A stretch of 64,000 nucleotides of DNA, from the NCBI RefSeq assembly GCF_016026235.1, contig NZ_CP065613.1. One strand, written 5' to 3'. Origin of the DNA: Escherichia coli (GTDB lineage: Bacteria; Pseudomonadota; Gammaproteobacteria; Enterobacterales; Enterobacteriaceae). How positions within the stretch are numbered: position 1 is the first letter of the stretch; the number at the start of each line of letters is the position of its first letter. Below are positions 8,437 to 54,659 of this stretch, piece by piece. The position numbers were made by a program, and so were the translations under genes. A model generated the notes under the pieces. That model saw only the letters and a program-made list of their open reading frames with translations, had not been told where the DNA came from and ran no database searches.

Positions 8437-8451
8437 CGTTTTCCCTTATAT

Positions 8452-9198: not shown

Positions 9199-9208
9199 GT
9201 TCTTATTC

Positions 9209-32278: not shown

Positions 32279-32492
32279 CGTTTCAGCGTCCCGCTGAAAT
32301 CATCGGCTTACCTCCTTTCGCCCTGAATGCAGTCTATCGCTAACGCGTGAATAAAATAGTTTCCTCTGTGATTATTGCGTAACGACTCGCAAAGAATATT
32401 TGCTGGCAGGATCGCAGACTACAAAGCCTACGGATTGACAATCTTATCGTGAAGGCATACTTTCAGGAGTGAGGGTAGAGCGGGGTTTCCCC

Positions 32493-33786
32493 CTGAGGAA
32501 TCCCCAGAAAACAAGACAGGCATAGTGAGATGTGATCTAATTGATTGTGCTAACAATTTCAAGGAGATCACCACTATGCCTGCACGTTCATTATGCCAAA
32601 ATTTCCTTAACAACATACTGGCCCCTTTGCATCTTTACCGTCAAAAATCACTGATTGACGCAACTAATGCTGTAATAAATGGCGCTTCCCTCACACTTAC
32701 CAGTATCGGGCGTCATTTAACCGGTACGGCATCAGTTAAAAACAAAATAAAGCGGGTGGATCGACTGTTGGGGAATCGACATTTGCAAAATGAGGTTTCC
32801 ACCATTTTTCAGCGAATTACCCAAAAGATTACGCGGGGAATGTCTCGTGTTGTGATACTCATTGACTGGAGTGCTTATCATGCCTCTCGTTTTCAGCTTT
32901 TGCGGGCAAGCCTGGCATGTGACGGGCGTTCTTTACCGTTGATGAGTTGTGTCGTTCCATCATCACAGACAGCGAATGCAGATGTACATGAGCGTTTTCT
33001 GGAATCGCTTGCTGAGTGCTTTTCCCCCGGGACTGATGTCATTGTTATTACAGATGCCGGTTTTCAGGGGCGATGGTTCCAACAGCTCCGCTCCCGTGGC
33101 TGGACCTATATTTGCCGGGTACTGGGCAATCATTATTACAATGTTGGTAATGGCTGGGAAAAGGTGTCGGACTCAGGCACAAAAGCATCAACGACAGCAA
33201 TTTATTTAGGTGAAGGCCTGCTGGGTCGAGATAAAAATGCACAACATGAAGGGCATTTTTATCTTTATAAAAGTAAGCCTAAAGGTCGTAGATTTAAACG
33301 CTCGAAGGAAAGAGCAACCAGACCATCGGTGACGGCTAAAGCTCGTACTGCCGGGAAATCACCATGGTTTATTTTCACAAACAGTACTGAGTTCTCGCCA
33401 AAACAGGTAATGAAATTATACAGCCGTAGAATGCAAATTGAGCAAAATTTCAGGGATGAAAAAAATCCTCGCTGGGGATTTGGACTACGGTTTGGTGCCA
33501 GTCATTCATCCGGGCGGGTCACGGTATTGAGTCTGATCGCAACATTAGCCAGTATCATTATGTGGTTAAGCGGTTTCAGTCTGGAAAACAAAGGGATACA
33601 TCATAAATATCAGGCAAATACAGTGAAGCACAGGCGAGTCATCTCGTTATTAAAACTGGCGGAGAATGTGATTCGACATTCTCCACTCATACTAAACACA
33701 CTGTCACTTGACGCAGGGCTGAAAGTTCTACAGCAACGGTATACCAATATGATAATGGTTTACTAAATTTTCTGGGGATCCCTCAG
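32493..33786 (+). mobile_element. IS10-like insertion sequence (IS4 family), copy 1, 1294 bp
   Basis: Imperfect terminal inverted repeats CTGAGGAATCCCCAGAAAAC / CTGAGGGATCCCCAGAAAAT; flanking direct repeat GGGTTTCCCC (32483-32492 and 33787-33796; 10-12 bp depending on end assignment); encodes an IS10-like DDE transposase. Confidence 0.9.
32525..33766 (+). CDS. IS4-family (IS10-like) DDE transposase
   Basis: 413 aa; recognisable similarity to the IS10 transposase (KRVDRLLGNRHL, YSRRMQIEQNFRDEKN, HKYQANTVKHR); alternative start at MPARSL (32576). Confidence 0.9.
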   Translation: MRCDLIDCANNFKEITTMPARSLCQNFLNNILAPLHLYRQKSLIDATNAVINGASLTLTSIGRHLTGTASVKNKIKRVDRLLGNRHLQNEVSTIFQRITQKITRGMSRVVILIDWSAYHASRFQLLRASLACDGRSLPLMSCVVPSSQTANADVHERFLESLAECFSPGTDVIVITDAGFQGRWFQQLRSRGWTYICRVLGNHYYNVGNGWEKVSDSGTKASTTAIYLGEGLLGRDKNAQHEGHFYLYKSKPKGRRFKRSKERATRPSVTAKARTAGKSPWFIFTNSTEFSPKQVMKLYSRRMQIEQNFRDEKNPRWGFGLRFGASHSSGRVTVLSLIATLASIIMWLSGFSLENKGIHHKYQANTVKHRRVISLLKLAENVIRHSPLILNTLSLDAGLKVLQQRYTNMIMVY

Positions 33787-33912
33787 GGGTTTCCCCCGCC
33801 CTGGTAGCCTTAGTAAGCTGGCCAGCTAATGACTAAGAGCACCACGATGATGAGTAGCTTCATCATGACCCTTTCCTTATTTATGGCCCCTTCCTCGGGA
33901 GGGGCTTTCCCG
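33787..33912 (+). ncRNA. sibB: SibB antisense sRNA, 3' portion; promoter and first ~25 nt are separated by the IS (5' fragment about 32465-32492)
   Basis: Second copy of the Sib repeat unit: promoter TTGACA(32435-32440)-17-TACTTT(32458-32463), then the IS, then the remainder antisense to ibsB, ending in a hairpin plus T tail near 33885-33912. Confidence 0.55.
33810..33866 (-). CDS. ibsB: Ibs-family type I toxin peptide (18 aa)
   Basis: Minus-strand ORF translates to MMKLLIIVVLLVISWPAY. Confidence 0.65.
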   Translation of the reverse strand: MMKLLIIVVLLVISWPAY

Positions 33913-34144
33913 TTTCAGCGTCCCGCTGAAATCGGCGGCTTACCTCCTTTCGCCATGCAAGCAGTCTATCGCTAACGCGTAGATAAAATAGTTTCCTGTG
34001 TTATTACTGGATGCGTGCTCGCAAATGTGCCCGTCATTCAGACGATTCCCGACAGTGTTTCATAATTCCTCCATTTTTCTCCCTTATTGGCTGGCTACAC
34101 TAGTATCATTCCGCGAAACGTTTCAGGAAGAGAAACTCTTAACG

Positions 34145-35392
34145 ATGAAAGGCAGTTATAAATCCCGTTGGGTAATCGTAATCGTGGTGGTTATCGCCGC
34201 CATCGCCGCATTCTGGTTCTGGCAAGGCCGCAATGACTCCCAGAGTGCAGCCCCAGGGGCGACGAAACAAGCGCAGCAATCGCCAGCGGGTGGTCGCCGT
34301 GGTATGCGTTCCGGCCCATTAGCCCCGGTTCAGGCGGCGACCGCCGTAGAACAGGCAGTTCCGCGTTACCTCACCGGGCTTGGCACCATTATCGCCGCTA
34401 ATACTGTTACGGTGCGCAGCCGCGTGGACGGTCAACTGATGGCGTTACATTTCCAGGAAGGCCAGCAGGTCAAAGCAGGCGATTTACTGGCAGAAATTGA
34501 CCCCAGCCAGTTCAAAGTTGCATTAGCACAAACCCAGGGCCAACTGGCAAAAGATAAAGCCACGCTTGCTAACGCCCGCCGTGATCTGGCGCGTTATCAG
34601 CAACTGGCAAAAACCAATCTCGTCTCCCGTCAGGAGCTGGATGCCCAACAGGCGCTGGTCAGTGAAACCGAAGGCACCATTAAGGCTGATGAAGCAAGCG
34701 TCGCCAGCGCGCAGTTGCAACTCGACTGGAGCCGCATCACCGCACCAGTCGATGGTCGCGTTGGTCTCAAGCAGGTTGATGTTGGTAACCAAATCTCCAG
34801 TGGTGATACCACCGGAATTGTGGTGATCACCCAGACGCATCCTATCGATTTAGTCTTTACCCTGCCGGAAAGCGATATCGCTACTGTAGTGCAGGCGCAA
34901 AAAGCCGGAAAACCGCTGGTGGTAGAAGCCTGGGATCGCACCAATTCGAAGAAATTAAGTGAAGGCACGCTGTTAAGCCTCGATAACCAAATCGATGCCA
35001 CAACCGGTACGATTAAAGTGAAAGCACGCTTTAATAATCAGGATGATGCGCTGTTTCCCAATCAGTTTGTTAACGCGCGCATGTTAGTCGACACCGAACA
35101 AAACGCCGTAGTGATCCCAACAGCCGCCCTGCAAATGGGCAATGAAGGCCATTTTGTCTGGGTGCTGAATAGCGAAAACAAGGTCAGCAAACATCTGGTG
35201 ACGCCGGGCATTCAGGACAGTCAGAAAGTGGTGATCCGTGCAGGTATTTCTGCGGGCGATCGCGTGGTGACAGACGGCATTGATCGCCTGACCGAAGGGG
35301 CGAAAGTGGAAGTGGTGGAAGCCCAGAGCGCCACCACTCCGGAAGAGAAAGCCACCAGCCGCGAATACGCGAAAAAAGGAGCACGCTCCTGA
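34145..35392 (+). CDS. mdtA: RND efflux membrane fusion protein
   Basis: ORF track 33998..35392; start trimmed to [16 protein letters not shown] (signal-anchor); periplasmic adaptor family. Confidence 0.9.
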
Positions 35393-38300
35393 TGCAGGTG
35401 TTACCCCCGAGCAGCACAGGCGGCCCGTCGCGCCTGTTTATTATGCGTCCTGTCGCCACCACGCTGCTGATGGTGGCGATCTTACTCGCCGGGATTATCG
35501 GTTATCGCGCCCTGCCCGTTTCGGCGCTGCCGGAAGTGGACTATCCGACCATTCAGGTGGTCACGCTCTACCCAGGTGCCAGCCCGGATGTCATGACCTC
35601 TGCCGTTACCGCGCCGCTCGAACGCCAGTTCGGGCAGATGTCTGGCCTGAAACAGATGTCGTCGCAAAGTTCCGGCGGTGCGTCAGTTATCACTTTGCAG
35701 TTCCAGCTAACATTACCGCTCGATGTCGCCGAGCAGGAAGTGCAGGCCGCGATTAACGCTGCGACCAACTTGTTGCCGAGCGATCTGCCTAACCCGCCGG
35801 TTTACAGCAAAGTGAACCCGGCAGATCCGCCGATCATGACGCTCGCCGTCACCTCAACCGCCATGCCGATGACGCAAGTGGAAGATATGGTGGAAACCCG
35901 CGTCGCGCAGAAAATCTCGCAGATTTCCGGCGTCGGCCTGGTGACGCTTTCCGGCGGTCAGCGTCCGGCTGTTCGCGTCAAACTTAACGCTCAGGCGATT
36001 GCCGCCCTCGGCCTGACCAGCGAAACCGTGCGCACCGCCATTACCGGCGCTAACGTTAACTCGGCAAAAGGTAGCCTCGACGGCCCTTCCCGTGCGGTCA
36101 CGCTTTCCGCGAACGACCAGATGCAATCCGCCGAAGAGTATCGCCAGCTAATCATCGCCTACCAGAACGGCGCGCCAATTCGTCTGGGCGATGTCGCAAC
36201 TGTAGAGCAAGGTGCAGAAAACAGCTGGCTCGGCGCGTGGGCGAACAAAGAACAGGCCATTGTGATGAATGTTCAGCGCCAGCCCGGTGCTAACATTATC
36301 TCCACCGCCGACAGCATTCGGCAGATGCAGCCACAGCTCACTGAGAGTCTGCCGAAATCGGTGAAGGTGACAGTGCTTTCCGATCGCACCACCAATATCC
36401 GCGCATCCGTCGATGATACTCAGTTTGAATTGATGATGGCTATCGCGCTGGTAGTCATGATTATCTACCTGTTTTTGCGCAATATTCCGGCGACCATCAT
36501 TCCCGGTGTTGCTGTACCGCTGTCGTTAATCGGCACTTTCGCGGTTATGGTGTTTCTCGATTTTTCAATCAATAACCTGACACTGATGGCGTTAACTATC
36601 GCCACCGGATTCGTGGTCGATGACGCCATCGTGGTGATCGAAAACATTTCCCGCTATATCGAAAAAGGCGAAAAACCGTTGGCGGCGGCGCTCAAGGGCG
36701 CAGGTGAAATCGGCTTTACCATTATCTCGCTGACCTTCTCACTGATTGCGGTGTTGATCCCACTGCTGTTTATGGGCGATATCGTCGGGCGACTGTTCCG
36801 CGAATTTGCTATTACCCTGGCGGTAGCGATTTTGATCTCAGCGGTGGTGTCGCTGACCCTGACACCGATGATGTGCGCGCGGATGCTCAGCCAGGAGTCG
36901 TTGCGTAAACAGAACCGCTTCTCCCGTGCCTCGGAAAAAATGTTCGACAGGATAATCGCCGCCTATGGTCGTGGACTGGCGAAAGTGCTGAATCATCCGT
37001 GGCTGACCTTAAGCGTGGCACTCAGCACGCTGCTGCTTAGCGTGCTGCTGTGGGTGTTCATTCCGAAAGGTTTCTTCCCGGTACAGGACAATGGCATTAT
37101 TCAGGGCACTTTGCAGGCACCGCAATCCAGCTCCTTTGCCAATATGGCCCAGCGACAACGCCAGGTCGCGGACGTGATTTTGCAGGATCCGGCAGTGCAA
37201 AGCCTGACCTCATTTGTTGGCGTTGATGGCACTAACCCGTCGCTGAATAGTGCACGTTTACAAATCAACCTCAAACCGTTGGATGAACGTGATGATCGGG
37301 TGCAAAAAGTCATCGCCCGTCTGCAAACGGCGGTAGATAAAGTGCCGGGCGTCGATCTCTTCCTGCAACCAACGCAGGATCTGACTATTGATACTCAGGT
37401 CAGCCGCACCCAGTACCAGTTTACCTTGCAGGCCACCTCACTGGATGCGCTCAGTACCTGGGTGCCACAGTTGATGGAAAAACTCCAGCAACTGCCACAG
37501 CTTTCTGATGTCTCCAGCGACTGGCAGGACAAAGGGCTGGTGGCGTATGTCAATGTTGATCGCGACAGCGCCAGCCGTCTGGGGATCAGCATGGCGGATG
37601 TCGATAACGCCCTGTACAACGCGTTTGGTCAGCGACTGATTTCCACTATTTATACTCAGGCTAACCAGTATCGCGTGGTGCTGGAGCACAACACCGAAAT
37701 TACCCCGGGCCTCGCGGCGCTGGATACCATTCGCCTGACCAGTAGCGACGGCGGCGTGGTGCAGTTAAGCTCAATTGCCAAAGTTGAACAGCGTTTTGCG
37801 CCGCTTTCCATCAACCATCTGGATCAGTTCCCGGTAACGACCATCTCCTTTAACGTGCCGGATAACTATTCGCTGGGCGATGCGGTGCAGGCGATTATGG
37901 ACACCGAAAAGACGCTGAATCTGCCGGTGGATATCACCACGCAGTTCCAGGGCAGCACCCTCGCCTTCCAGTCGGCGCTGGGCAGCACTGTCTGGCTGAT
38001 TGTCGCGGCGGTGGTGGCGATGTATATCGTGCTCGGCATTCTGTACGAGAGCTTTATTCACCCGATCACCATTCTCTCGACGCTACCCACCGCAGGAGTC
38101 GGCGCACTGCTGGCGTTAATGATTGCCGGTAGCGAACTGGATGTGATTGCGATTATCGGCATTATTTTGCTGATCGGTATCGTGAAGAAGAACGCCATCA
38201 TGATGATCGACTTCGCGCTGGCTGCTGAGCGCGAGCAAGGCATGTCGCCGCGCGATGCCATCTACCAGGCTTGTCTGTTGCGTTTTCGTCCGATCCTGAT

Positions 38301-38514
38301 GACCACTCTGGCGGCTCTGCTTGGCGCGCTGCCGCTGATGTTGAGTACCGGGGTCGGCGCGGAACTGCGTCGTCCGTTAGGTATCGGCATGGTCGGCGGC
38401 CTGATTGTCAGCCAGGTGCTGACGCTGTTTACCACGCCGGTGATTTATCTGCTGTTCGACCGCCTGGCATTGTGGACCAAAAGTCGCTTTGCTCGCCATG
38501 AAGAGGAGGCGTAA
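35392..38514 (+). CDS. mdtB: RND multidrug efflux transporter subunit
   Basis: 1040 aa; 12-TM RND permease; start overlaps the mdtA stop (TGATG). Confidence 0.93.
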
Positions 38515-41500
38515 GTGAAGTTTTTTGCCCTCTTCATTTACCGTCCGGTGGCGACGATTTTACTGTCGGTTGCCATTACCCTGTGCGGCATACTGGGCTT
38601 CCGTATGCTGCCGGTCGCCCCGCTGCCGCAGGTCGATTTTCCGGTGATTATGGTCAGCGCCTCGCTGCCCGGTGCGTCACCAGAAACAATGGCGTCTTCC
38701 GTTGCCACGCCGCTGGAGCGCTCACTTGGGCGCATTGCCGGAGTCAGTGAAATGACCTCCAGCAGTTCGCTCGGCAGCACGCGTATTATTTTGCAGTTTG
38801 ATTTTGACCGGGATATCAACGGCGCGGCGCGCGATGTGCAGGCGGCGATCAACGCTGCACAAAGTTTGCTGCCCAGCGGGATGCCCAGCCGTCCGACCTA
38901 TCGCAAAGCTAACCCGTCGGATGCGCCAATTATGATCCTCACGCTGACATCCGATACTTATTCGCAGGGTGAACTGTACGATTTCGCCTCGACGCAGCTG
39001 GCTCCGACGATTTCGCAAATCGACGGTGTTGGTGATGTCGATGTCGGCGGCAGCTCACTGCCCGCCGTACGCGTCGGGCTGAATCCGCAGGCGCTGTTTA
39101 ATCAGGGCGTCTCGCTGGACGACGTACGCACTGCCATCAGCAATGCCAACGTGCGTAAACCGCAGGGGGCGCTGGAAGATGGCACTCACCGCTGGCAGAT
39201 CCAGACCAATGATGAGCTAAAAACCGCCGCCGAATATCAGCCGCTGATTATTCATTACAACAACGGCGGCGCGGTTCGTCTGGGCGATGTGGCGACAGTG
39301 ACCGACTCTGTACAGGATGTACGTAACGCCGGGATGACCAATGCCAAACCGGCTATTTTGCTGATGATCCGCAAGCTGCCGGAAGCCAATATTATCCAGA
39401 CGGTTGACAGCATCCGGGCAAAATTACCGGAGTTGCAGGAAACCATTCCGGCGGCGATTGATCTGCAAATTGCCCAGGATCGCTCCCCCACCATTCGCGC
39501 CTCGCTGGAAGAAGTCGAGCAAACGCTGATTATCTCGGTGGCGCTGGTGATTCTGGTGGTGTTTTTATTCCTGCGCTCGGGTCGCGCCACTATTATTCCC
39601 GCCGTTTCGGTGCCGGTTTCGCTGATTGGTACGTTTGCGGCGATGTACCTGTGCGGATTCAGTCTCAATAACCTTTCGTTAATGGCGCTCACCATCGCTA
39701 CTGGTTTCGTGGTGGATGACGCCATCGTGGTGCTGGAAAACATTGCCCGTCATCTGGAAGCGGGAATGAAACCGTTGCAAGCCGCACTGCAAGGTACTCG
39801 CGAAGTCGGTTTTACGGTGCTGTCGATGAGTCTGTCACTGGTGGCGGTGTTCCTGCCGCTGCTGTTGATGGGCGGATTGCCGGGCCGACTGTTACGCGAG
39901 TTTGCCGTGACGCTTTCTGTCGCCATTGGTATTTCGTTGCTGGTTTCCCTGACGCTAACGCCAATGATGTGCGGCTGGATGCTAAAAGCCAGCAAGCCGC
40001 GTGAGCAAAAGCGACTGCGTGGTTTTGGTCGCATGTTGGTTGCCCTGCAACAAGGCTACGGCAAGTCACTGAAATGGGTGCTCAATCATACCCGTCTGGT
40101 GGGCGTAGTGCTGCTTGGCACCATTGCGCTGAATATCTGGCTATATATCTCGATCCCGAAAACCTTCTTCCCGGAGCAGGACACTGGCGTGTTGATGGGC
40201 GGGATTCAGGCGGATCAGAGTATTTCGTTTCAGGCGATGCGCGGTAAGTTGCAGGATTTCATGAAAATTATCCGTGACGATCCGGCAGTGGATAATGTCA
40301 CCGGCTTTACAGGCGGTTCGCGAGTGAACAGCGGGATGATGTTTATCACCCTCAAGCCACGCGACGAACGCAGCGAAACGGCGCAGCAAATTATCGACCG
40401 TCTGCGCGTAAAACTGGCGAAAGAACCGGGGGCGAATCTGTTCCTGATGGCGGTACAGGATATTCGCGTTGGTGGGCGTCAGTCGAACGCCAGCTACCAG
40501 TACACGTTGTTATCCGACGACCTGGCGGCACTGCGAGAATGGGAGCCGAAAATCCGCAAAAAACTGGCGACGTTGCCGGAACTGGCGGACGTGAACTCCG
40601 ATCAGCAGGATAACGGCGCGGAGATGAATCTGGTTTACGACCGCGACACCATGGCACGGCTGGGAATCGACGTACAAGCCGCCAACAGTCTGTTAAATAA
40701 CGCCTTCGGTCAGCGGCAAATCTCGACCATTTACCAGCCGATGAACCAGTATAAAGTGGTGATGGAAGTGGATCCGCGCTATACCCAGGACATCAGTGCG
40801 CTGGAAAAAATGTTCGTTATCAATAACGAAGGCAAAGCGATCCCGCTGTCGTATTTCGCTAAATGGCAACCGGCGAATGCCCCACTATCGGTGAATCATC
40901 AGGGATTATCGGCGGCCTCGACCATTTCGTTTAACCTGCCGACCGGAAAATCGCTCTCGGACGCCAGTGCGGCGATCGATCGCGCAATGACCCAGCTTGG
41001 GGTGCCTTCGACGGTGCGCGGCAGTTTTGCCGGCACGGCGCAGGTGTTCCAGGAGACGATGAACTCGCAGGTGATCCTGATTATCGCCGCCATCGCCACG
41101 GTGTATATCGTGCTGGGTATCCTTTACGAGAGTTACGTACATCCGCTGACGATTCTCTCCACCCTGCCCTCGGCGGGCGTTGGAGCGCTGTTGGCGCTGG
41201 AGCTGTTCAATGCCCCGTTCAGCCTAATCGCCCTGATAGGGATCATGCTATTAATCGGCATCGTGAAGAAAAACGCCATTATGATGGTCGATTTTGCGCT
41301 TGAAGCCCAACGGCACGGTAACCTGACGCCGCAGGAAGCTATTTTCCAGGCCTGTCTGCTGCGTTTTCGCCCGATTATGATGACCACCCTGGCGGCGCTG
41401 TTTGGTGCGCTGCCGCTGGTATTGTCGGGCGGCGACGGCTCGGAGCTGCGGCAACCCCTGGGGATCACCATTGTCGGCGGACTGGTAATGAGCCAGCTCC

Positions 41501-41592
41501 TTACGCTGTATACCACGCCGGTGGTGTATCTCTTTTTCGACCGTCTGCGGCTGCGTTTTTCGCGTAAACCTAAACAAACGGTAACCGAGTAA
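38515..41592 (+). CDS. mdtC: RND multidrug efflux transporter subunit
   Basis: 1025 aa; paralogous to mdtB; GTG start immediately after the mdtB stop. Confidence 0.93.
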
Positions 41593-44408: not shown

Positions 44409-45127
44409 CCGAGTTACCAATCGACGAAAACACACCGCGTATTTTGATCGTGGAAGATGAACCGAAGCTGGGGCAGTTGCTCATTGATTATCTGCGTGCT
44501 GCGAGCTATGCGCCGACGCTTATCAGCCACGGCGATCAGGTACTGCCGTATGTGCGCCAGACACCACCGGATCTGATCCTGTTAGATCTGATGCTCCCTG
44601 GCACCGATGGCCTGACGCTGTGCCGGGAAATTCGTCGTTTTTCTGACATTCCGATCGTGATGGTGACGGCAAAAATCGAAGAGATCGATCGCCTGCTGGG
44701 GCTGGAGATTGGCGCAGATGACTACATCTGCAAGCCGTACAGCCCACGGGAAGTGGTAGCGCGCGTCAAAACCATTTTGCGCCGTTGCAAACCGCAGCGC
44801 GAGTTGCAGCAACAGGATGCTGAAAGCCCGTTGATTATCGACGAAGGTCGTTTTCAGGCTTCATGGCGCGGTAAAATGCTTGACCTGACGCCTGCGGAAT
44901 TTCGTCTGCTGAAAACGCTCTCTCATGAACCAGGAAAAGTGTTCTCCCGCGAGCATTTGCTCAATCATCTTTATGACGACTACCGCGTAGTAACCGACCG
45001 CACCATCGACAGCCACATTAAAAACCTGCGCCGCAAGCTGGAATCTCTCGACGCCGAACAGTCATTTATCCGCGCCGTTTACGGCGTCGGTTACCGCTGG
45101 GAAGCCGACGCCTGCCGCATCGTTTAG
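44405..45127 (+). CDS. baeR: OmpR-family response regulator
   Basis: 240 aa; receiver motif [11 protein letters not shown] and winged-helix C-terminus. Confidence 0.93.
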
Positions 45128-45281
45128 TTTTAGCGACATTATTTTGTTAGCCGGAGATGGCGTTCAGACCCGATCCGGCCACATTATCCCACGCATGGTC
45201 AGCAAACTGACATTATCTCTCCGCCCTGGCAGGCATCAGAAAATCGCTCATACTTTAATCGGTAAACAGCACCTTTAGATG

Positions 45282-46707: not shown

Positions 46708-46755
46708 CACCTTTAGATGCTGTTTTCGATACACAATTTCAATCAAGGAGTCATT

Positions 46756-47088
46756 ATGGCTGGTTGGTTTGAACTCAGTAAGAGCAGTGATAATCAGTTC
46801 CGGTTTGTGCTAAAAGCGGGCAATGGTGAGACTATCCTCACCAGCGAGCTGTATACCTCAAAAGCCTCTGCGGAAAAGGGCATCGCGTCGGTGCGTAGCA
46901 ACAGCCCGCAAGAAGAACGCTATGAGAAAAAAACGGCAAGTAACGGCAAATTCTATTTCAATCTGAAAGCCGCTAATCATCAAATTATCGGCTCCAGCCA
47001 GATGTACGCCACCGCGCAATCTCGTGAAACCGGAATTGCCTCCGTTAAAGCCAATGGCACAAGCCAGACGGTGAAAGACAATACGTAA
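46756..47088 (+). CDS. yegP: YegP (UPF0339/DUF1508 tandem-repeat protein)
   Basis: ORF track 46717..47088; start trimmed to MAGWFEL with SD AAGGAG at 46745-46750; two DUF1508-like repeats. Confidence 0.85.
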   Translation: MAGWFELSKSSDNQFRFVLKAGNGETILTSELYTSKASAEKGIASVRSNSPQEERYEKKTASNGKFYFNLKAANHQIIGSSQMYATAQSRETGIASVKANGTSQTVKDNT

Positions 47089-47240
47089 TTACGATGCCGG
47101 GCGTGGGTTGTTGGCGTCCGGCTTTATATCCAAATAACGCTTAGTTATTAATAATTAAGAGTAACCGCCGCCATTAAAATAGTGGGCACTGACGAGCACT
47201 CGTTGTGCTTTCTTTGTTTACCATCCCATACTTATCCTCC

Positions 47241-47252
47241 TGAACATGTTCA
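47241..47252. promoter_or_regulatory. Perfect 12-bp palindrome TGAACATGTTCA, candidate operator upstream of parDE
   Basis: Palindrome sits about 90 bp upstream of the parD start, within a likely promoter region. Confidence 0.35.
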
Positions 47253-47341
47253 TGTGCCAAAATATCTTCTAATACTTTCGTGACGCTATCCGGTTTATGA
47301 CATACACTGATGTAAGATTTTTACTTACAGGCGGGCGTAAA

Positions 47342-47593
47342 ATGGCCAGAACGATGACGGTTGATCTCGGCGATGAGTTGCGTGAATTTATCGAGTCCTT
47401 AATTGAATCCGGCGACTATCGCACCCAAAGCGAAGTGATCCGTGAGTCACTGCGATTACTTCGAGAAAAGCAAGCAGAGTCTCGCCTGCAAGCGTTACGT
47501 GACATGCTCGCAGAAGGGTTGAGTAGTGGTGAAGCTCAGCCGTGGGAAAAGGACGCGTTCTTACGGAAGGTGAAAGCAGGGATAAGGAAATAA
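47342..47593 (+). CDS. parD: ParD-family antitoxin (ribbon-helix-helix)
   Basis: ORF track 47297..47593; likely start at MARTMTV; resembles ParD/COG3609 antitoxins (TQSEVIRESLRLLREKQ); immediately upstream of a ParE-like ORF. Confidence 0.8.
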   Translation: MARTMTVDLGDELREFIESLIESGDYRTQSEVIRESLRLLREKQAESRLQALRDMLAEGLSSGEAQPWEKDAFLRKVKAGIRK

Positions 47594-47594
47594 T

Positions 47595-47891
47595 GTGCGT
47601 ATTATTAAACTCATGCCAAAAGCCAATGAGGATTTAGAAGGCATCTGGTATTACAGCTATCACCATTTCGGCGAACCACAAGCCGACAGATATGTGGAAC
47701 ATCTTTCAGACGTTCTCCAGATTCTGAGTAACAATAATATAGGTACGCCCAGACCTGAATTAGGCGAAGGTATTTTTGTTCTTCCTTTTGAACGCCACGT
47801 CATTTATTTCCTGCAATCACCAGGGGAAATTATCGTCATTCGTATCCTTAACCAAAACCAGAACGCCACCAGACATTTACACTGGAGCTAA
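47595..47891 (+). CDS. parE: ParE-family toxin (RelE/ParE superfamily)
   Basis: 98 aa; GTG start 1 nt after the parD stop, preceded by SD AAGGA; N-terminal EDLEGIWYYS and C-terminal IIVIRILNQNQNATRHL resemble ParE toxins. Confidence 0.8.
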   Translation: MRIIKLMPKANEDLEGIWYYSYHHFGEPQADRYVEHLSDVLQILSNNNIGTPRPELGEGIFVLPFERHVIYFLQSPGEIIVIRILNQNQNATRHLHWS

Positions 47892-47993
47892 ACCCGCCGA
47901 TTGCGCTACAATGCCCGCCCTTAAAGTGGGGGCACTCCCCTAACCGCTTCATCAGGTGAAGCGGATCTGACCTGTCATCAGAACGAGAGAATT

Positions 47994-49355
47994 ATGTTTA
48001 AACCGGAACTCCTTTCCCCGGCGGGAACGCTGAAAAATATGCGTTACGCTTTCGCTTATGGCGCAGATGCTGTTTATGCGGGCCAGCCGCGTTATTCCCT
48101 GCGTGTGCGCAACAACGAATTCAACCACGAAAATCTTCAGCTCGGCATCAATGAAGCCCACGCGCTGGGGAAAAAGTTTTATGTCGTGGTCAACATTGCA
48201 CCGCACAACGCCAAGCTGAAAACCTTTATCCGTGACCTGAAACCGGTGGTGGAAATGGGGCCGGATGCGCTGATTATGTCCGATCCAGGGCTGATTATGC
48301 TGGTGCGTGAGCACTTCCCTGAAATGCCGATCCACCTTTCGGTGCAGGCTAACGCCGTGAACTGGGCGACGGTGAAATTCTGGCAGCAAATGGGCCTGAC
48401 CCGCGTGATCCTCTCTCGCGAGCTGTCGCTGGAAGAGATTGAAGAGATCCGCAATCAGGTGCCGGATATGGAGATCGAGATCTTCGTTCACGGCGCGCTG
48501 TGCATGGCCTACTCCGGTCGCTGCCTGCTCTCTGGCTATATCAACAAGCGCGACCCGAACCAGGGCACCTGCACCAACGCCTGCCGCTGGGAGTACAACG
48601 TCCAGGAAGGGAAAGAAGATGATGTTGGCAACATCGTACACAAGTACGAGCCGATTCCGGTGCAAAATGTTGAGCCGACGCTGGGTATCGGCGCACCAAC
48701 CGACAAAGTGTTTATGATCGAAGAGGCCCAGCGTCCGGGCGAGTATATGACCGCGTTTGAAGATGAGCACGGCACTTACATCATGAACTCGAAAGATCTG
48801 CGCGCCATCGCCCATGTAGAACGCCTGACCAAAATGGGCGTGCATTCGCTGAAAATCGAAGGTCGTACCAAATCTTTCTACTATTGTGCACGCACCGCAC
48901 AGGTTTACCGCAAAGCTATCGATGACGCCGCTGCGGGAAAACCGTTCGATACCAGCCTGCTGGAAACTCTGGAAGGTCTGGCGCATCGTGGCTATACCGA
49001 AGGTTTCCTGCGTCGTCATACTCACGACGATTATCAGAACTACGAATACGGTTATTCAGTTTCTGACCGCCAGCAGTTTGTTGGTGAGTTTACCGGTGAG
49101 CGCAAGGGGGACCTCGCGGCGGTAGCGGTGAAAAATAAATTCTCCGTTGGCGACAGCCTTGAGCTGATGACGCCGCAAGGCAACATTAATTTTACCCTTG
49201 AGCACATGGAAAACGCCAAAGGCGAAGCTATGCCGATAGCACCAGGCGATGGTTATACTGTGTGGCTCCCGGTCCCGCAGGATCTTGAGCTCAATTACGC
49301 GCTGCTGATGCGTAATTTCTCCGGGGAAACCACGCGTAATCCCCACGGTAAGTGA
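47994..49355 (+). CDS. trhP: Peptidase U32-family protein YegQ/TrhP (tRNA hydroxylation)
   Basis: 453 aa; MFKPELLSPAGTLKNMRYAFAYGADAVY...; U32 family, with a Cys-rich segment. Confidence 0.9.
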   Translation: MFKPELLSPAGTLKNMRYAFAYGADAVYAGQPRYSLRVRNNEFNHENLQLGINEAHALGKKFYVVVNIAPHNAKLKTFIRDLKPVVEMGPDALIMSDPGLIMLVREHFPEMPIHLSVQANAVNWATVKFWQQMGLTRVILSRELSLEEIEEIRNQVPDMEIEIFVHGALCMAYSGRCLLSGYINKRDPNQGTCTNACRWEYNVQEGKEDDVGNIVHKYEPIPVQNVEPTLGIGAPTDKVFMIEEAQRPGEYMTAFEDEHGTYIMNSKDLRAIAHVERLTKMGVHSLKIEGRTKSFYYCARTAQVYRKAIDDAAAGKPFDTSLLETLEGLAHRGYTEGFLRRHTHDDYQNYEYGYSVSDRQQFVGEFTGERKGDLAAVAVKNKFSVGDSLELMTPQGNINFTLEHMENAKGEAMPIAPGDGYTVWLPVPQDLELNYALLMRNFSGETTRNPHGK

Positions 49356-49385
49356 TTAATTTCGATTATTTTTCCCGGATGGAAA

Positions 49386-49407
49386 ATTCTTAGAAACCGA
49401 TCACATA
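49386..49407 (+). promoter_or_regulatory. Candidate CRP binding site in the cyaR promoter
   Basis: AATTCTTAGAAACCGATCACAT contains the TCACA half-site centred about 43 nt upstream of the cyaR 5' end; -10 TATCAT at 49428-49433. Confidence 0.4.
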
Positions 49408-49439
49408 CAGCTGCATTTATTAAGGTTATCATCCGTTTC

Positions 49440-49526
49440 GCTGAAAAACATAACCCATAAAATGCTAGCTGTACCAGGAACCACCTCCTTAGCCTGTGTA
49501 ATCTCCCTTACACGGGCTTATTTTTT
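49440..49526 (+). ncRNA. cyaR: CyaR (RyeE) sRNA
   Basis: Sequence GCTGAAAAACATAACCCATAAAATGCTAGCTGTACCAGGAACCACCTCCTTAGCCTGTGTAATCTCCCTTACACGGGCTTATTTTTT matches CyaR as recalled; terminal hairpin plus T6. Confidence 0.9.
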
Positions 49527-49684
49527 ATGCATAAGCCCTATCCCTGGTCACCGTCTTCCATTGACCACATCGATAGAATCTCCCTTCATAGCACGATGCC
49601 TTTCACGTAACGGCATCGTGCTCGCACAGGTTCCGGCTAAGCACAACCAGAACGCGCATGTTTGACGCTTACCAAAAAATATTC

Positions 49685-50002
49685 TCACTCTCCACATTTG
49701 AATGTCAGACGAGCGACGCCATGTAATCCTGCACCTTCTGTCTTCAGGTCAACTATCTGCATTTTTTTGCCCTGAGTAACACAGAAATGGGCTGCATCAT
49801 TTTTTACTATATTTTCTGCACCAGATATTCTGCCCCTGGCTAAAGAAGCTTCGGCTTCGGTGTAGTATTGGTTATCGAGTTTACGCTGAATATTACTTTT
49901 ATATGCAAGACCAAATTTACCGATACTTGTCTCATCATTATGCACAGCACAACCAGACATAATAAAAATACTAATTAATGATATAGCAGCTATCTTTTTC
50001 AT
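49685..50002 (-). CDS. yegR: Small lipoprotein YegR
   Basis: ORF track 49685..50062; start trimmed to MKKIAAISLISIFIMSGC (lipobox). Confidence 0.8.
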   Translation of the reverse strand: MKKIAAISLISIFIMSGCAVHNDETSIGKFGLAYKSNIQRKLDNQYYTEAEASLARGRISGAENIVKNDAAHFCVTQGKKMQIVDLKTEGAGLHGVARLTFKCGE

Positions 50003-50407
50003 CTCACCTTCCCCCATTAAATACCAACGACACTCTCTAGTGTTTAAATATAATAATGGCATGATTATTATAATTGAATAGGATTATAATAAATGTTCTG
50101 TACAACATTTCCTACATAAGTAGGAATTACGGACATTGAGGCCCTTCAGGGTAACTCCATGGGGGCTTTAATATATTATATTGAAGATGCCACTGTTTAG
50201 TTGAATATTAGGTATATGCTCTTTTTTGAAATTTATCGGTGGCAGCCGTTAGTATTCGCTGTCCCCATTGCAAGCTCCTGGTGGTAACCACTGAATCCTC
50301 CATACTTGAACTGACTTTTTATCCTCCGACTTTCATCCTGTTCTGACTCCACCTTTTGTTTTCTGCTCTACACTATCTACAGACCAATCATAAAGGCACA
50401 TACGATC

Positions 50408-51307
50408 ATGGCAGAATTTCCCGCCAGCTTACTGATTCTTAATGGCAAAAGTACTGACAATCTACCCTTGCGCGAAGCAATTATGCTGTTGCGTGAGGAA
50501 GGAATGACGATCCATGTGCGGGTCACCTGGGAGAAAGGCGATGCCGCACGATATGTAGAGGAGGCCCGGAAGTTGGGCGTCGCAACGGTGATTGCCGGTG
50601 GTGGCGATGGCACCATTAATGAAGTTTCTACGGCGTTGATTCAGTGTGAGGGGGATGACATACCCGCGCTGGGAATTTTGCCATTAGGAACCGCCAATGA
50701 TTTTGCCACCAGTGTAGGGATTCCTGAGGCACTGGATAAGGCGCTGAAACTGGCAATTGCCGGTAATGCCATTGCGATAGATATGGCGCAGGTCAACAAA
50801 CAAACCTGTTTTATTAATATGGCGACAGGCGGGTTTGGGACGCGTATTACCACAGAAACGCCGGAAAAATTAAAAGCCGCGCTGGGTGGCGTCTCATACA
50901 TCATTCATGGCTTAATGCGTATGGATACTCTGCAACCGGACCGTTGTGAAATCCGCGGTGAAAACTTTCACTGGCAAGGTGACGCCCTGGTCATTGGTAT
51001 TGGTAACGGGCGTCAGGCCGGTGGCGGTCAACAATTGTGCCCGAACGCGTTAATTAACGATGGCTTGCTGCAACTGCGCATTTTTACCGGCGATGAAATT
51101 CTTCCGGCTCTCGTATCAACCTTAAAATCTGACGAAGATAACCCGAATATTATCGAAGGCGCTTCGTCGTGGTTTGATATACAAGCCCCACACGAAATCA
51201 CTTTTAATCTTGATGGCGAACCGTTGAGTGGACAAAACTTTCATATTGAAATACTTCCGGCGGCGTTGCGTTGTCGATTACCACCAGATTGTCCATTATT
51301 GCGTTAA
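50408..51307 (+). CDS. yegS: Lipid kinase YegS (diacylglycerol-kinase catalytic family)
   Basis: 299 aa; GGDGT motif in [13 protein letters not shown]. Confidence 0.9.
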
Positions 51308-51344
51308 TCAAACTATTCTCTCTTGAACCAGGGAGAATCCGTAA

Positions 51345-51378
51345 TGCCGGATGCGGTGTAAATACCTTATCCGGCATA
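51345..51378. repeat. REP element between yegS and gatR
   Basis: GCCGGATGCGGTGTAAATACCTTATCCGGCATAC. Confidence 0.75.
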
Positions 51379-51388
51379 CAGAACAATA

Positions 51389-52168
51389 CTACACCGTAAT
51401 TAATTTCACCCGTGTCTTCTGCAATGCCAGTTTATCCACCTCAGACACAGCATCATCGGTAATAATAATGTCAATTTTTTCGATTGGCAGTACCTGATTA
51501 AAACCGCGACGGTTAAATTTCGATGAATCGAGAACGGCAATCACTTTATTAGCGGCTGTGACCATCGCACCGCTAACGGAATAACCCTCATTAAAGGTCG
51601 TAATACCATTAACCGCATCAATACCATCAGCACCGACAAACATTAAATCGGCATTAATATCCTGCAGGGAACGTTCAGCAATAGATCCATGCATAGATCG
51701 CGTTTTATGGCGGACCGTGCCACCGCAGACGACCAGAGTAATGTCTTTATTTTCGGAAAGGGCAAACGCAGCCGGGAGACTGTTGGTAATCACCGTGATA
51801 TTTTTGGCGGTCATTAATCCTTCGGCGATAAGCATTGTGGTACTTCCGCTGTCGAGAATAACGGTCATCCCTTCATGGATCATTTTGACTGCCGCCTGCG
51901 CTATTCTGTTTTTCGGCGCGCTGGCGAGCTGAAATCGCTCTTTAAACCCGACTTCCTGGGTCTCGGTTTCACTATTACCGGACATTATTTTCGCCGCACC
52001 GCCATGAAAGCGCGTAACCACGCCTTTTTGTTCGAGAAAGCGCAAATCGGCACGGATTGTCGCTTCCGAGGCAGCAAATACTCCCGCCAGATCCTGAACA
52101 AGCACGGTTCCCTGTTCATTCACTAATTGGATGATCTTATTCCTTCGCTCGAATGAATTCATCGTCAT
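51389..52168 (-). CDS. gatR: DeoR-family repressor of the galactitol operon (intact)
   Basis: 259 aa; N-terminal HTH and C-terminal DeoR sugar-binding domain; uninterrupted here. Confidence 0.88.
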   Translation of the reverse strand: MTMNSFERRNKIIQLVNEQGTVLVQDLAGVFAASEATIRADLRFLEQKGVVTRFHGGAAKIMSGNSETETQEVGFKERFQLASAPKNRIAQAAVKMIHEGMTVILDSGSTTMLIAEGLMTAKNITVITNSLPAAFALSENKDITLVVCGGTVRHKTRSMHGSIAERSLQDINADLMFVGADGIDAVNGITTFNEGYSVSGAMVTAANKVIAVLDSSKFNRRGFNQVLPIEKIDIIITDDAVSEVDKLALQKTRVKLITV

Positions 52169-52267
52169 TTACCCATATTCAATTGTGGCTAGTGTAAACG
52201 AAGGGGGACCATTGGTGAATGATCTGTTTTGCACAATACCGGGCCAGCATCACGCTGGCCCGCGGTT

Positions 52268-53308
52268 TCAGGGAATGAGCAACACTTTGCCCGGCATGGC
52301 ATTACGAGCGATGTCACGCACCGCCTGGGCGAAGCTTTCAAAGCTTCCACGGTGAGCGATTAATGGCTCCAGGCTTAACTTACGTTCTGTCAGCAACCGG
52401 CTCGCCGTTTCCCACTCCTGCCCCGGCCAAGGGCTGGAGTAGTTCATCCAACTGCCGATAACCGTCAGCTCTTTACGCAATATTTTGCCAAACGTTGCCG
52501 ATGTTAAATGCAGATCCTGATGCAACGTGCCCACCAGCGCCAGTTGGGCATGAGGACCGGCAATCTCTACCGCCAGTTCGACAGTTTGCGGTACGCCAGC
52601 CGTCTCGAGGATAAGCTGATTAAAGCGCAGTTCGCGTAAAACGCTCTGCATTTGCGGCGCGCTCATTTCGCTACTGTTAAATGTTTGCATCGCACCGAAA
52701 GATTTTGCCAGTGCCAGTTTTTCTGAGCTAATGTCGATAGCCGTCACACTCTTTGCTCCCAGCGCGACAGCGCACTGAATAGCCAGCAGGCCAATGGTTC
52801 CGGCACCAATAATAATAACGTTTTTATTCTCACAACCTTGCGCTAAATGAAAAGCATGCAGTCCAACGGTAATCGGCTCAATAAAAGCCCCATCCTCAAT
52901 AGGCATATCCGTGGGTAGAGCAAAGACATTTTTTCGCTTAACGACAATATATTCAGCAAATCCACCATCACGCCGCGAGCCAATAAAATCATATTTTGCG
53001 CACTGGGAATAAAACCCTTTCAAACACTCTGGACAAGTAAAACAGGGTAATAACGGCACACAGGCAACCGCATCGCCAAGGTGTAAATCATCAACACCGG
53101 ATCCCACCGCATCAATATAGCCGCTAAATTCATGGCCTAACGTTATTGGATAATAATGTGCACCATTTTTAAATATCCTGGGTAAATCGGAACCACATAA
53201 GCCCGAGCTGGCAATTTTTACCCGTACCTCATCCTGATGTTTAATTTCAGGAATGACGCTTTCTGCAACGCGCACGATACCATCAGTATCATTCACCACT
53301 GATTTCAT
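52268..53308 (-). CDS. gatD: Galactitol-1-phosphate 5-dehydrogenase (Zn-dependent)
   Basis: 346 aa; Zn-ADH motifs GHEFSG and GAGTIGL. Confidence 0.92.
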   Translation of the reverse strand: MKSVVNDTDGIVRVAESVIPEIKHQDEVRVKIASSGLCGSDLPRIFKNGAHYYPITLGHEFSGYIDAVGSGVDDLHLGDAVACVPLLPCFTCPECLKGFYSQCAKYDFIGSRRDGGFAEYIVVKRKNVFALPTDMPIEDGAFIEPITVGLHAFHLAQGCENKNVIIIGAGTIGLLAIQCAVALGAKSVTAIDISSEKLALAKSFGAMQTFNSSEMSAPQMQSVLRELRFNQLILETAGVPQTVELAVEIAGPHAQLALVGTLHQDLHLTSATFGKILRKELTVIGSWMNYSSPWPGQEWETASRLLTERKLSLEPLIAHRGSFESFAQAVRDIARNAMPGKVLLIP

Positions 53309-53340
53309 AAAAACTCCTGATTGTTAAGGGGGATAAACTC

Positions 53341-54634
53341 CTGAGGAATCCCCAGAAAACAAGACAGGCATAGTGAGATGTGATCTAATTGATTGTGCTA
53401 ACAATTTCAAGGAGATCACCACTATGCCTGCACGTTCATTATGCCAAAATTTCCTTAACAATATACTGGCCCCTTTGCATCTTTACCGTCAAAAATCACT
53501 GATTGACGCAACTAATGCTGTAATAAATGGCGCTTCCCTCACACTTACCAGTATCGGGCGTCATTTAACCGGTACGGCATCAGTTAAAAACAAAATAAAG
53601 CGGGTGGATCGACTGTTGGGGAATCGACATTTGCAAAATGAGGTTTCCACCATTTTTCAGCGAATTACCCAAAAGATTACGCGGGGAATGTCTCGTGTTG
53701 TGATACTCATTGACTGGAGTGCTTATCATGCCTCTCGTTTTCAGCTTTTGCGGGCAAGCCTGGCATGTGACGGGCGTTCTTTACCGTTGATGAGTTGTGT
53801 CGTTCCATCATCACAGACAGCGAATGCAGATGTACATGAGCGTTTTCTGGAATCGCTTGCTGAGTGCTTTTCCCCCGGGACTGATGTCATTGTTATTACA
53901 GATGCCGGTTTTCAGGGGCGATGGTTCCAACAGCTCCGCTCCCGTGGCTGGACCTATATTTGCCGGGTACTGGGCAATCATTATTACAATGTTGGTAATG
54001 GCTGGGAAAAGGTGTCGGACTCAGGCACAAAAGCATCAACGACAGCAATTTATTTAGGTGAAGGCCTGCTGGGTCGAGATAAAAATGCACAACATGAAGG
54101 GCATTTTTATCTTTATAAAAGTAAGCCTAAAGGTCGTAGATTTAAACGCTCGAAGGAAAGAGCAACCAGACCATCGGTGACGGCTAAAGCTCGTACTGCC
54201 GGGAAATCACCATGGTTTATTTTCACAAACAGTACTGAGTTCTCGCCAAAACAGGTAATGAAATTATACAGCCGTAGAATGCAAATTGAGCAAAATTTCA
54301 GGGATGAAAAAAATCCTCGCTGGGGATTTGGACTACGGTTTGGTGCCAGTCATTCATCCGGGCGGGTCACGGTATTGAGTCTGATCGCAACATTAGCCAG
54401 TATCATTATGTGGTTAAGCGGTTTCAGCCTGGAAAACAAAGGGATACATCATAAATATCAGGCAAATACAGTGAAGCACAGGCGAGTCATCTCGTTATTA
54501 AAACTGGCGGAGAATGTGATTCGACATTCTCCACTCATACTAAACACACTGTCACTTGACGCAGGGCTGAAAGTTCTACAGCAACGGTATACCAATATGA
54601 TAATGGTTTACTAAATTTTCTGGGGATCCCTCAG
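53341..54634 (+). mobile_element. IS10-like insertion sequence (IS4 family), copy 2, 1294 bp
   Basis: Same element as copy 1, with at least two single-base differences (offsets 121 and 1087); flanking direct repeat GGATAAACTC (53331-53340 and 54635-54644). Confidence 0.9.
53373..54614 (+). CDS. IS4-family (IS10-like) DDE transposase
   Basis: 413 aa, protein identical to the copy-1 transposase. Confidence 0.9.
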   Translation: MRCDLIDCANNFKEITTMPARSLCQNFLNNILAPLHLYRQKSLIDATNAVINGASLTLTSIGRHLTGTASVKNKIKRVDRLLGNRHLQNEVSTIFQRITQKITRGMSRVVILIDWSAYHASRFQLLRASLACDGRSLPLMSCVVPSSQTANADVHERFLESLAECFSPGTDVIVITDAGFQGRWFQQLRSRGWTYICRVLGNHYYNVGNGWEKVSDSGTKASTTAIYLGEGLLGRDKNAQHEGHFYLYKSKPKGRRFKRSKERATRPSVTAKARTAGKSPWFIFTNSTEFSPKQVMKLYSRRMQIEQNFRDEKNPRWGFGLRFGASHSSGRVTVLSLIATLASIIMWLSGFSLENKGIHHKYQANTVKHRRVISLLKLAENVIRHSPLILNTLSLDAGLKVLQQRYTNMIMVY

Positions 54635-54659
54635 GGATAAACTCCCCCTCAGTTAAAAA

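Follow-up and report, generated by a model that had tools for sequence, protein, structure and literature searches.

Several described insertion sequences (ISs) provide points of comparison for the locus studied here. IS10 is 1329 bp long, generates a 9-bp target duplication and has the target consensus NGCTNAGCN. Other ISs aim at palindromic or structured sites, including IS30, with its hot spots, and IS1397 and ISKpn1, which insert into REP/BIME sequences. The closest named relative of the element described below is ISSfl1 from the Shigella flexneri pINV, with 52% amino-acid and ~70% nucleotide identity.

We analysed a stretch of 64,000 nucleotides from an Escherichia coli contig (NZ_CP065613.1), henceforth referred to as the window. 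Two copies of a single IS4-family element bracket the genes mdtABCD-baeSR and their neighbours. The reading we hold with high confidence is that two ISEc60 copies inserted independently into a native chromosome, and that the segment between them is now open to deletion. The features of the locus are listed in Table 1.

Table 1. Features of the ISEc60-bracketed locus, in window coordinates
Feature	Position	Strand	Remarks
sibA antitoxin RNA	32100..32248	+	intact; Rfam SIB_RNA 149.5 bits
ibsA toxin ORF	32174-32233	-	intact
sibB antitoxin RNA gene	32435..33881	+	split by copy 1: 5' part 32435-32492, 3' part 33787-33881
Target duplication 1	left 32483-32492, right 33787-33796		GGGTTTCCCC; perfect 10-bp direct repeat around copy 1
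ISEc60 copy 1	32493..33786	+	1294 bp; from copy-versus-copy alignment and match to RefSeq-named copies
Candidate RNA-OUT-like antisense hairpin	32510..32590	-	over transposase RBS and ATG; putative function
Transposase CDS, copy 1	32576..33766	+	396 aa from ATG 32576; RefSeq annotation WP_001111632.1 of identical copies
Interval between copies	33787..53340	.	19,554 bp of native chromosome
ibsB-like toxin ORF	33810-33866	-	intact; ORF MMKLLIIVVLLVISWPAY
IS4	45282-46707		within interval
cyaR	49438-49523		within interval
gatD	52268-53308	-	parted from gatC by copy 2
Target duplication 2	left 53331-53340, right 54635-54644		GGATAAACTC; perfect 10-bp direct repeat around copy 2
ISEc60 copy 2	53341..54634	+	1294 bp; CDS 53424-54614
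gatC	54660..56015	-	NCBIfam EIIC-GAT, PRK10309; annotation of homologous loci

Identity of the element

Both copies are 99.9% identical over 1294/1294 bp to many RefSeq copies labelled "IS4-like element ISEc60 family transposase". Examples are those of EIEC CFSAN029787 and E. coli FDAARGOS_943, which have an identical 396-aa transposase and the terminal repeats seen here. Going by this RefSeq/PGAP label, which stands in for the ISfinder reference, the element is ISEc60, a member of the IS4 family. The transposase scores 360 bits against the NCBIfam IS4-family model NF033591 (cutoff 152) and matches Pfam DDE_Tnp_1 (PF01609). We aligned it with the transposases of ISSfl1 and IS10A, the IS10A reference sequence being taken from L017. 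D97, D160 and E289 are invariant across the three proteins, and the Y-2-R-3-E-6-K signature, which fits the YSRRMQIEQNFRDEK stretch of ISEc60, is kept in the other two. The element thus combines the features that define the IS4 family, namely the DDE and Y-2-R-3-E-6-K motifs, short inverted repeats and a target duplication within ~9-13 bp. A sequence search among PDB structures returned no relative of the transposase. ISEc60 is already catalogued and little studied, and it is not a new element; we found no paper characterising it in the literature searched. Full-length copies are present in 14 of 5426 complete E. coli genomes, and a scan of species representatives did not find the 29-nt left end of the IS.

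The initial annotation had reported identical 413-aa transposases. The maximal ORFs, which start at GTG 32525 in copy 1 and at GTG 53373 in copy 2, do translate identically over 413 aa. A protein of 396 aa is nevertheless likely, because the RefSeq start at ATG 32576 lines up with the starts of the ISSfl1 and IS10A transposases in the alignment.

The element had also been described as resembling IS10 while clearly diverged from it, which agrees with the amino-acid identity of 35-36% to the IS10A/ISVsa5 transposase. Like IS10, IS10A and ISVsa5, ISEc60 has a single ORF, the DDE and Y-2-R-3-E-6-K motifs, and termini that begin CTGA-GAATCCCC in the same register. GATC occurs in one terminal repeat and again close to the start of the transposase, the RBS and ATG are covered by a stable hairpin at the position of RNA-OUT in IS10, and the target preference is symmetric in both. 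ISEc60 differs from IS10 in being 1294 bp long, in duplicating 10 bp (sometimes 11) rather than 9 bp, and in its GGGG-W4-CCCC-like target; together with the low protein identity, these differences show that it is not IS10. The termini of ISEc60 and its GATC-containing 5' hairpin are conserved in ISSfl1, with compensatory changes, although ISSfl1 is a distinct element. A match on the Salmonella plasmid pESI (L016), considered as a possible IS10, was rejected as a decayed relative.

The candidate antisense hairpin folds with -33.4 kcal/mol (z = -6.4). An alignment of four sequences contains 23 conserved pairs, including two compensatory ones, and one-sided changes give G-U pairs on the - strand. 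The Rfam RNA-OUT model (RF00240) matches weakly at 32513-32583 on the same strand (16.8 bits vs a gathering score of 41), and a consensus scan near the left end identified no convincing pIN- or pOUT-like promoter. The hairpin stem contains two GATC (Dam) sites and the right terminal repeat a third; these sites are conserved in ISSfl1. By analogy with IS10, ISEc60 may be regulated by an antisense RNA and by Dam.

Extent and boundaries of the two copies

Pairwise alignment showed that the two copies are co-linear, on the same strand and 99.85% identical. There are exactly two mismatches over the 1294 bp, at offset 122 (C at 32614, T at 53462) and at offset 1088 (T at 33580, C at 54428). Both fall at third-codon positions and are synonymous (AAC/AAT and AGT/AGC). 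Such similarity between two 1.3-kb stretches cannot be due to chance. It ends 1-2 bp beyond the element edges, and a repeat search found no third ISEc60 copy within the 64-kb window. Each copy has one private nucleotide. The T at offset 1088 places copy 1 a single nucleotide from the sequence common to the EIEC strains and FDAARGOS_943, and the T at offset 122 places copy 2 a single nucleotide from the common ISEc60 sequence. The initial annotation had described near-identical, co-linear copies of equal length and orientation that differ only at synonymous positions and have separate target duplications, and we reproduced each of these points. Its mismatch coordinates were also right; the offsets that it gave, 121 and 1087, are 0-based.

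The terminal inverted repeats of copy 1 pair at 18 of the first 19 positions (CTGAGGAATCCCCAGAAAA / CTGAGGGATCCCCAGAAAA). The CTG terminus, in the register of IS10, favours an element of 1294 bp with a 10-bp duplication over the alternative of 1295 bp with a 9-bp duplication. We also considered an IS of 1296 bp with an 8-bp duplication, as a C precedes and a G follows the element at both sites in the window. This boundary was rejected because the gat site of FDAARGOS_943 has A on the right, and G and C at these positions fit the wider target consensus.

Insertion sites and target preference

Copy 1 lies in the sib/ibs locus between yegL and mdtA. Partial Rfam SIB_RNA matches to sibB were detected on each side of the IS, and the locus has the arrangement of a Sib/Ibs type I toxin-antitoxin system, in which an 18-19-aa ibs ORF is overlapped in antisense by a Sib RNA gene. 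Target duplication 1 sits in the hairpin GCGGGG-TTT-CCCCCGC, and the site matches GGGG-N4-CCCC perfectly, as does only one other position in the pre-insertion window. As its antitoxin RNA gene is split, the function of sibB is probably altered by copy 1. Two further loci considered as breaks at this site (L020 and L021) were rejected, since sibB is intact in them and foreign DNA begins ~150 bp further right.

Copy 2 lies between gatC and gatD in the galactitol operon. The insertion point follows the gatC stop by 25 bp and precedes the gatD ATG by 32 bp, and the copy probably uncouples gatD from the operon promoter. Target duplication 2 sits in the hairpin GGGGG-ATAAACT-CCCCC. The gat site agrees with the linear consensus (see below) at only six of eight positions, yet it was struck twice. 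Judging from this site, the target determinant may be hairpin structure rather than sequence.

We examined 20 complete ISEc60 copies. The perfect flanking repeat is 10 bp in 14 of them and 11 bp in two. The remaining four are L009 and L011, which have unmatched flanks and belong to a multi-copy genome, and the two copies of a tandem dimer (L006) whose outer flanks match each other. The 14 empty sites that we reconstructed have the near-palindromic consensus G-GGG-(A/T-rich 4)-CYC-C, and most of them form a GC hairpin whose loop is spanned by the duplication. In the tandem dimer, the inner spacer GGGATTTACC is identical to the pINV site of another copy (L026), and the outer duplication is GGGATTTTCC. 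The 10-bp spacer of ISEc60 dimers is the target duplication, whereas the abutted-end junction of IS30-type intermediates is 2-3 bp. IS30, IS1397 and ISKpn1 belong to families other than that of ISEc60 but resemble it in their short palindromic intergenic targets, with parallel insertions in unrelated strains as a consequence, and in their tandem dimers.

A more general reading, to which we give somewhat less than an even chance, is that ISEc60 seeks hairpin tips. Its targets would be short palindromes with a GC stem and an AT loop, such as those of intrinsic terminators or the stems in sib/ibs and hok loci, possibly recognized by structure and not by sequence alone. The same positions would be struck in unrelated lineages and in either orientation, and the duplicated target would stay attractive, giving dimers that could move as a unit. 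Type I antitoxin RNA genes would be split repeatedly while the toxin ORF is spared. The general understanding of IS elements is unchanged by these findings.

Origin of the two insertions

The interval between the copies contains ibsB, mdtABCD, baeSR, IS4, yegP, parDE, yegQ/trhP, cyaR, yegR, yegS, gatR and gatD; family matches and homologous annotation agree with the gene list drawn up initially. Apart from IS elements, the interval is co-linear with RMDEC364 and FDAARGOS_943. A segment bracketed by two ISs of the same type could in principle be a 22-kb composite transposon that brought in mdtABCD-baeSR and neighbours as cargo. The outer ends (left of copy 1 and right of copy 2) form a proper end pair, and elsewhere the two copies of the tandem ISEc60 dimer seem to have moved together. 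However, the outer flanks share no duplication (GGGTTTCCCC vs GGATAAACTC), there being one duplication per copy, and the order yegL-sib-mdtABCD-baeSR-...-gatD-gatC is native in thousands of IS-free E. coli genomes. A composite transposon as the origin of the locus is already refuted by these observations, and we regard it as extremely improbable; the initial annotation had likewise favoured independent insertions over one composite event. Still less probable is that assembly created one of the copies, for instance by placing a repeat a second time. IS elements often cause misassembly and nothing more specific speaks for an artefact here, whereas the two copies are told apart by private SNPs, by separate perfect duplications and by flanks unique to each, and both sites are independently occupied in other finished genomes.

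The insertions might instead have been inherited from an ancestor common to the EIEC clade and FDAARGOS_943, or carried in with flanking DNA by recombination. Site 1 is occupied in RMDEC364, RMDEC332, VL46 and CFSAN029787 at the same position, in the same orientation and with the same duplication as in the window. Although this likeness is what common descent would produce, several comparisons make such a history unlikely. The flanks differ from those of RMDEC364 and FDAARGOS_943 by 1.25-2.1%, with divergence setting in within 22 bp of the IS, whereas the IS itself differs by 0.08% (1/1294). In FDAARGOS_943 both sites are occupied, but by the IS in the opposite orientation, and the gat duplication is shifted by 1 bp. 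The gat insertion is absent from the EIEC strains, and CFSAN029787 was struck a second time, in the corresponding hairpin of the sib unit that follows. Among RMDEC332, RMDEC364, VL46 and CFSAN029787, the copy at the fimbrial site is also seen flipped, which may have come about through re-insertion after loss or through a fault of assembly. The strong preference of ISEc60 for hairpin-type targets explains why particular sites are used repeatedly in unrelated strains; a shared ISEc60 insertion site is therefore a poor marker of common descent.

In the reading that we prefer, two separate ISEc60 insertions took place in a native chromosome of the E. coli/Shigella type. Copy 1 entered the sibB antitoxin RNA gene and copy 2 the gatC-gatD spacer, each in the loop of a hairpin with a GC stem and an AT loop, and each insertion created its own 10-bp duplication. 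By homology, the single DDE transposase gene of ISEc60 is expected to support cut-and-paste movement.

Predicted recombination between the copies

Homologous recombination between the copies had been proposed to delete or invert the intervening segment. Between direct repeats such as these, recombination should delete the segment or, through unequal sister exchange, duplicate it in tandem; no inversion is expected. RecA-dependent recombination would remove 20,848 bp, comprising one IS and mdtABCD-baeSR through gatD, and the one IS left behind would be a hybrid whose flanks do not match. In a single step, the chromosome could thus lose or amplify the MdtABCD efflux pump, the BaeSR envelope-stress system, cyaR, the parDE module and gatD, and genome stability is the practical point for this locus. 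We sought the yegL-sibA-IS-gatC junction as matches of ~72% coverage and found it in no complete E. coli genome, so the 20.8-kb deletion is a prediction only.

A related EIEC series shows what appears to be a deletion of this kind on a small scale. The sib units are arranged as U1-IS-U2-U3 in VL46, as U1-IS-U2-IS-U3 in CFSAN029787 and as U1-IS-U3 in RMDEC364. The arrangement in RMDEC364 could also reflect a short-homology (~29 bp) deletion with no two-IS intermediate. It is nonetheless the product expected if two direct ISEc60 copies had recombined, and RMDEC364 is identical to the right flank of CFSAN029787 at 358/358 positions.

The finding holds up but is unremarkable: ISEc60, an insertion sequence already catalogued, inserted twice and independently into the native chromosome. 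The initial annotation was largely right, save on inversion and protein length. Beyond it, our analysis adds a hairpin-type target preference, recurrent parallel hits, and disruption of sibB and the gat operon.

Identity of the element

We searched 5,426 complete E. coli genomes for the element by megablast and obtained full-length matches at 99.9% identity, labeled in RefSeq as "IS4-like element ISEc60 family transposase" (WP_001111632.1, 396 aa). Only 14 of these genomes carry full-length ISEc60. Among these are CFSAN029787, RMDEC332, RMDEC364 and VL46, all enteroinvasive (large plasmids included), as well as FDAARGOS_943, where the element occupies at least 38 chromosomal places. The ISEc60 end was absent from all species-representative genomes scanned, and in the literature searched ISEc60 is mentioned only by name in tables of mobile elements.

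Protein sequence evidence places the element in the IS4 family. The transposase scores 360 bits against the NCBIfam IS4 model NF033591 (cutoff 152), matches Pfam DDE_Tnp_1, and conserves D97, D160, E289 and the Y-2-R-3-E-6-K signature; no sequence-level relative was found in the PDB. Its amino-acid identity is 52% to ISSfl1 and 35-36% to IS10A/ISVsa5, in agreement with the initial description of an IS10-like but clearly diverged element. The terminal repeats agree at 18 of their first 19 positions, open with CTGAGG[A/G]ATCCCC, and are in register with the CTGA-GAATCCCC of IS10. A 413-aa transposase had been reported for both copies; this is the maximal ORF, from GTG 32525. A 396-aa product is more likely because its annotated start codon, ATG 32576, lines up with those of ISSfl1 and IS10A.

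A long inverted repeat surrounds the ribosome binding site and start codon. The minus-strand RNA of this segment folds at -33.4 kcal/mol (z = -6.4), and the Rfam RNA-OUT model matches its exact place and strand below threshold (16.8 bits, gathering score 41). We compared the hairpin in four sequences (ISEc60 and its 85% variant, ISSfl1, and a decayed Salmonella relative). There are 23 conserved pairs; in two of these both partners have changed, and every change confined to one partner leaves a G-U pair on the minus strand. The stem contains two GATC sites, both also conserved in ISSfl1, and the right terminal repeat contains a third. This anatomy fits antisense and Dam control in the style of IS10, a candidate that four sequences and a sub-threshold match do not prove.

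Two independent insertions in native backbone

The two copies had been described as near-identical, of equal length and orientation, with synonymous differences, and pairwise comparison bears this out. There are exactly two mismatches (32614 C/53462 T and 33580 T/54428 C), both at third-codon positions, and the ORF translations are identical; the sites first reported were correct, their offsets being 0-based. Identity stops 1-2 bp beyond the element coordinates. Each copy differs by one private synonymous change from the sequence common to the carrier strains (C at offset 122, C at offset 1088). A repeat search of the whole window found no further copy.

Coordinates of features at the two ISEc60 insertions and between them
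Feature	Position	Strand	Details
sibA	32100-32248		intact
Copy 1 target duplication	32483-32492 and 33787-33796		GGGTTTCCCC; perfect 10-bp direct repeat
ISEc60 copy 1	32493-33786	+	1294 bp
Long inverted repeat around RBS and ATG	32510-32590		IS positions 18-98
ibsB-like toxin ORF	33810-33866	-	intact, antisense to sibB
IS4 between baeR and yegP	45282-46707	-	full, 1426 bp; 12-bp duplication CACCTTTAGATG
parD/parE toxin-antitoxin pair	47297-47891		between yegP and yegQ, within deletable interval
gatR	51389-52168		intact
Copy 2 region of galactitol operon	53309-54659
Copy 2 target duplication	53331-53340 and 54635-54644		GGATAAACTC; perfect 10-bp direct repeat
ISEc60 copy 2	53341-54634	+	1294 bp

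On either side of the copies, and across the 19,554 bp between them, the sequence is co-linear with IS-free E. coli, in the order yegL, sibA/ibsA, copy 1, ibsB, mdtABCD, baeSR, IS4, yegP, parDE, yegQ/trhP, cyaR, yegR, yegS, gatR, gatD, copy 2, gatC; from mdtABCD to gatD this is the order first listed. By this co-linearity we take the interval to be native backbone. Since the two target duplications also differ, arrival of the 22-kb unit as a composite transposon is excluded, and the earlier proposal of separate insertions stands.

The IS4 copy occupies the same baeR-yegP intergenic site in six complete E. coli genomes. Identity to other genomes is mosaic along the window: for the colanic-acid region (1-12000) it does not exceed 98.8% with any complete E. 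coli genome in RefSeq, and 99.9% is attained only at the gatD-gatC flanks. The lineage of the window is without a representative among these genomes.

Target preference and recurrence

Further insertions were gathered by exact-protein lookup and RefSeq matches. Among 20 complete copies, perfect flanking repeats were of 10 bp in 14 and 11 bp in two; of the remaining four, two (L009, L011) have unmatched flanks and two make up a chromosomal dimer (L006) whose outer flanks match each other. The 14 reconstructed empty sites give the target consensus G / GGG-(A/T-rich ×4)-C-Y-C / C; of 13 sites, 12 have G at position 1, 12 have C at position 11, and all 13 have C at position 10. Most of the 14 fold into a hairpin with a GC stem, in which the duplication spans the loop, and several are terminator-like with a T run. 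The 85% variant likewise sits in GCGGGG-TAGG-CCCCGC. Perfect GGGG-N4-CCCC occurs at only two sites in the pre-insertion window, one of them the copy 1 target. Structure may matter in target choice, because the gat site, which agrees with the linear consensus at no more than 6 of 8 positions, is nevertheless a G5-N7-C5 hairpin.

The copy 1 site is occupied in the same orientation in RMDEC364, RMDEC332, VL46 and CFSAN029787, the last with a second ISEc60 in the corresponding hairpin of the following sib unit. In FDAARGOS_943 both window sites are filled by inverted copies, with the gat-site duplication displaced by 1 bp. Shared ancestry would account for common positions, but the flanks diverge from those of the window by 1.25-2.1%, beginning within 22 bp of the IS, whereas the elements differ at 1 of 1294 positions. 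Shared ancestry is therefore rejected, and these insertions are, as judged from this comparison, recent independent hits on preferred sites.

The FDAARGOS_943 copy at the first site (L001, 1-2932) is itself truncated by an IS66-family element, and mdtD of this strain, annotated as frameshifted, lacks the stretch equivalent to window 41930-42168. RMDEC332 and RMDEC364, which are closely related, carry ISEc60 in opposite orientations at one fimbrial-operon site (L027 and L028, IS at 1501-2794 in each), with identical flanks and a shared 10-bp duplication, GGGGTAGCCC; two plasmid loci (L029, L030) show the same flipped pattern with an 11-bp duplication. Either a fresh insertion at a preferred site or some other way of flipping the element might explain this.

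Recombination between copies

Recombination between copies 1 and 2 would delete 20,848 bp (one IS plus the interior), and unequal sister exchange would duplicate the same length. Of the "delete or invert" first proposed, deletion stands; inversion does not, the copies being direct repeats. The predicted deletion junction was absent from all complete E. coli genomes searched. Loss of the segment would take the parD/parE addiction module along, and such deletions might be counter-selected.

The sib repeats (units U1-U3) may hold a small-scale natural example. VL46 has U1-IS-U2-U3 and CFSAN029787 has U1-IS-U2-IS-U3, matching VL46 at 338/338 positions in the middle segment and 358/358 in the right. 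RMDEC364 has U1-IS-U3, identical to the CFSAN029787 right flank (358/358), which is the exact product expected of recombination between two IS copies. Alternatively, a VL46-like arrangement could have given rise to it by deletion across 29 bp of short homology. The unmatched flanks of L009 and L011 (IS at 2918-4211 in each; GCA_031665325.1, a multi-copy genome) are consistent with IS-mediated rearrangement; their partner junctions were not found.

Tandem dimers occur on the CFSAN029787 pINV-type plasmid (L026, 1501-4098), as GGGATTTACC-IS-GGGATTTACC-IS-GGGATTTACC, and in the L006 chromosome (2918-5515), with exactly one 10-bp copy of the target between the two elements of each. The L006 inner spacer is the pINV site GGGATTTACC but its outer duplication is GGGATTTTCC, which suggests that directly repeated ISEc60 pairs can transpose as a composite unit. 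IS10 transposition is length dependent, and given this a 22-kb unit would be far less likely to move than the dimer.

Effects on the gat operon and sibB

Copy 2 interrupts the 47-bp spacer between gatC and gatD at 32 bp upstream of the gatD start codon (ATG). It therefore severs gatD from the operon promoter, unless the IS gives outward transcription, and the insertion is probably polar on gatD. With its left end towards gatD, the IS would send transcription into that gene from any pOUT-like outward promoter.

sibB is interrupted by copy 1, the Rfam SIB model matching its 5' part at 32435-32492 and its 3' part at 33787-33881; sibA and ibsA are both intact. The break falls about 58 model positions from the 5' end of the antitoxin RNA gene. 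With sibB split, toxin silence could reflect readthrough or outward IS transcription, or weak ibsB expression.

The spacer between yegL and mdtA seems to be a hot zone for insertions in general. In two other E. coli with the same YegL allele (L020, L021), a foreign element begins just past the sibB 3' end (reverse complement, from about 5290) and, within the retrieved locus, takes the place of the mdtA side; this element encodes an NleG-type effector and a 413-aa ORF without a Pfam match.
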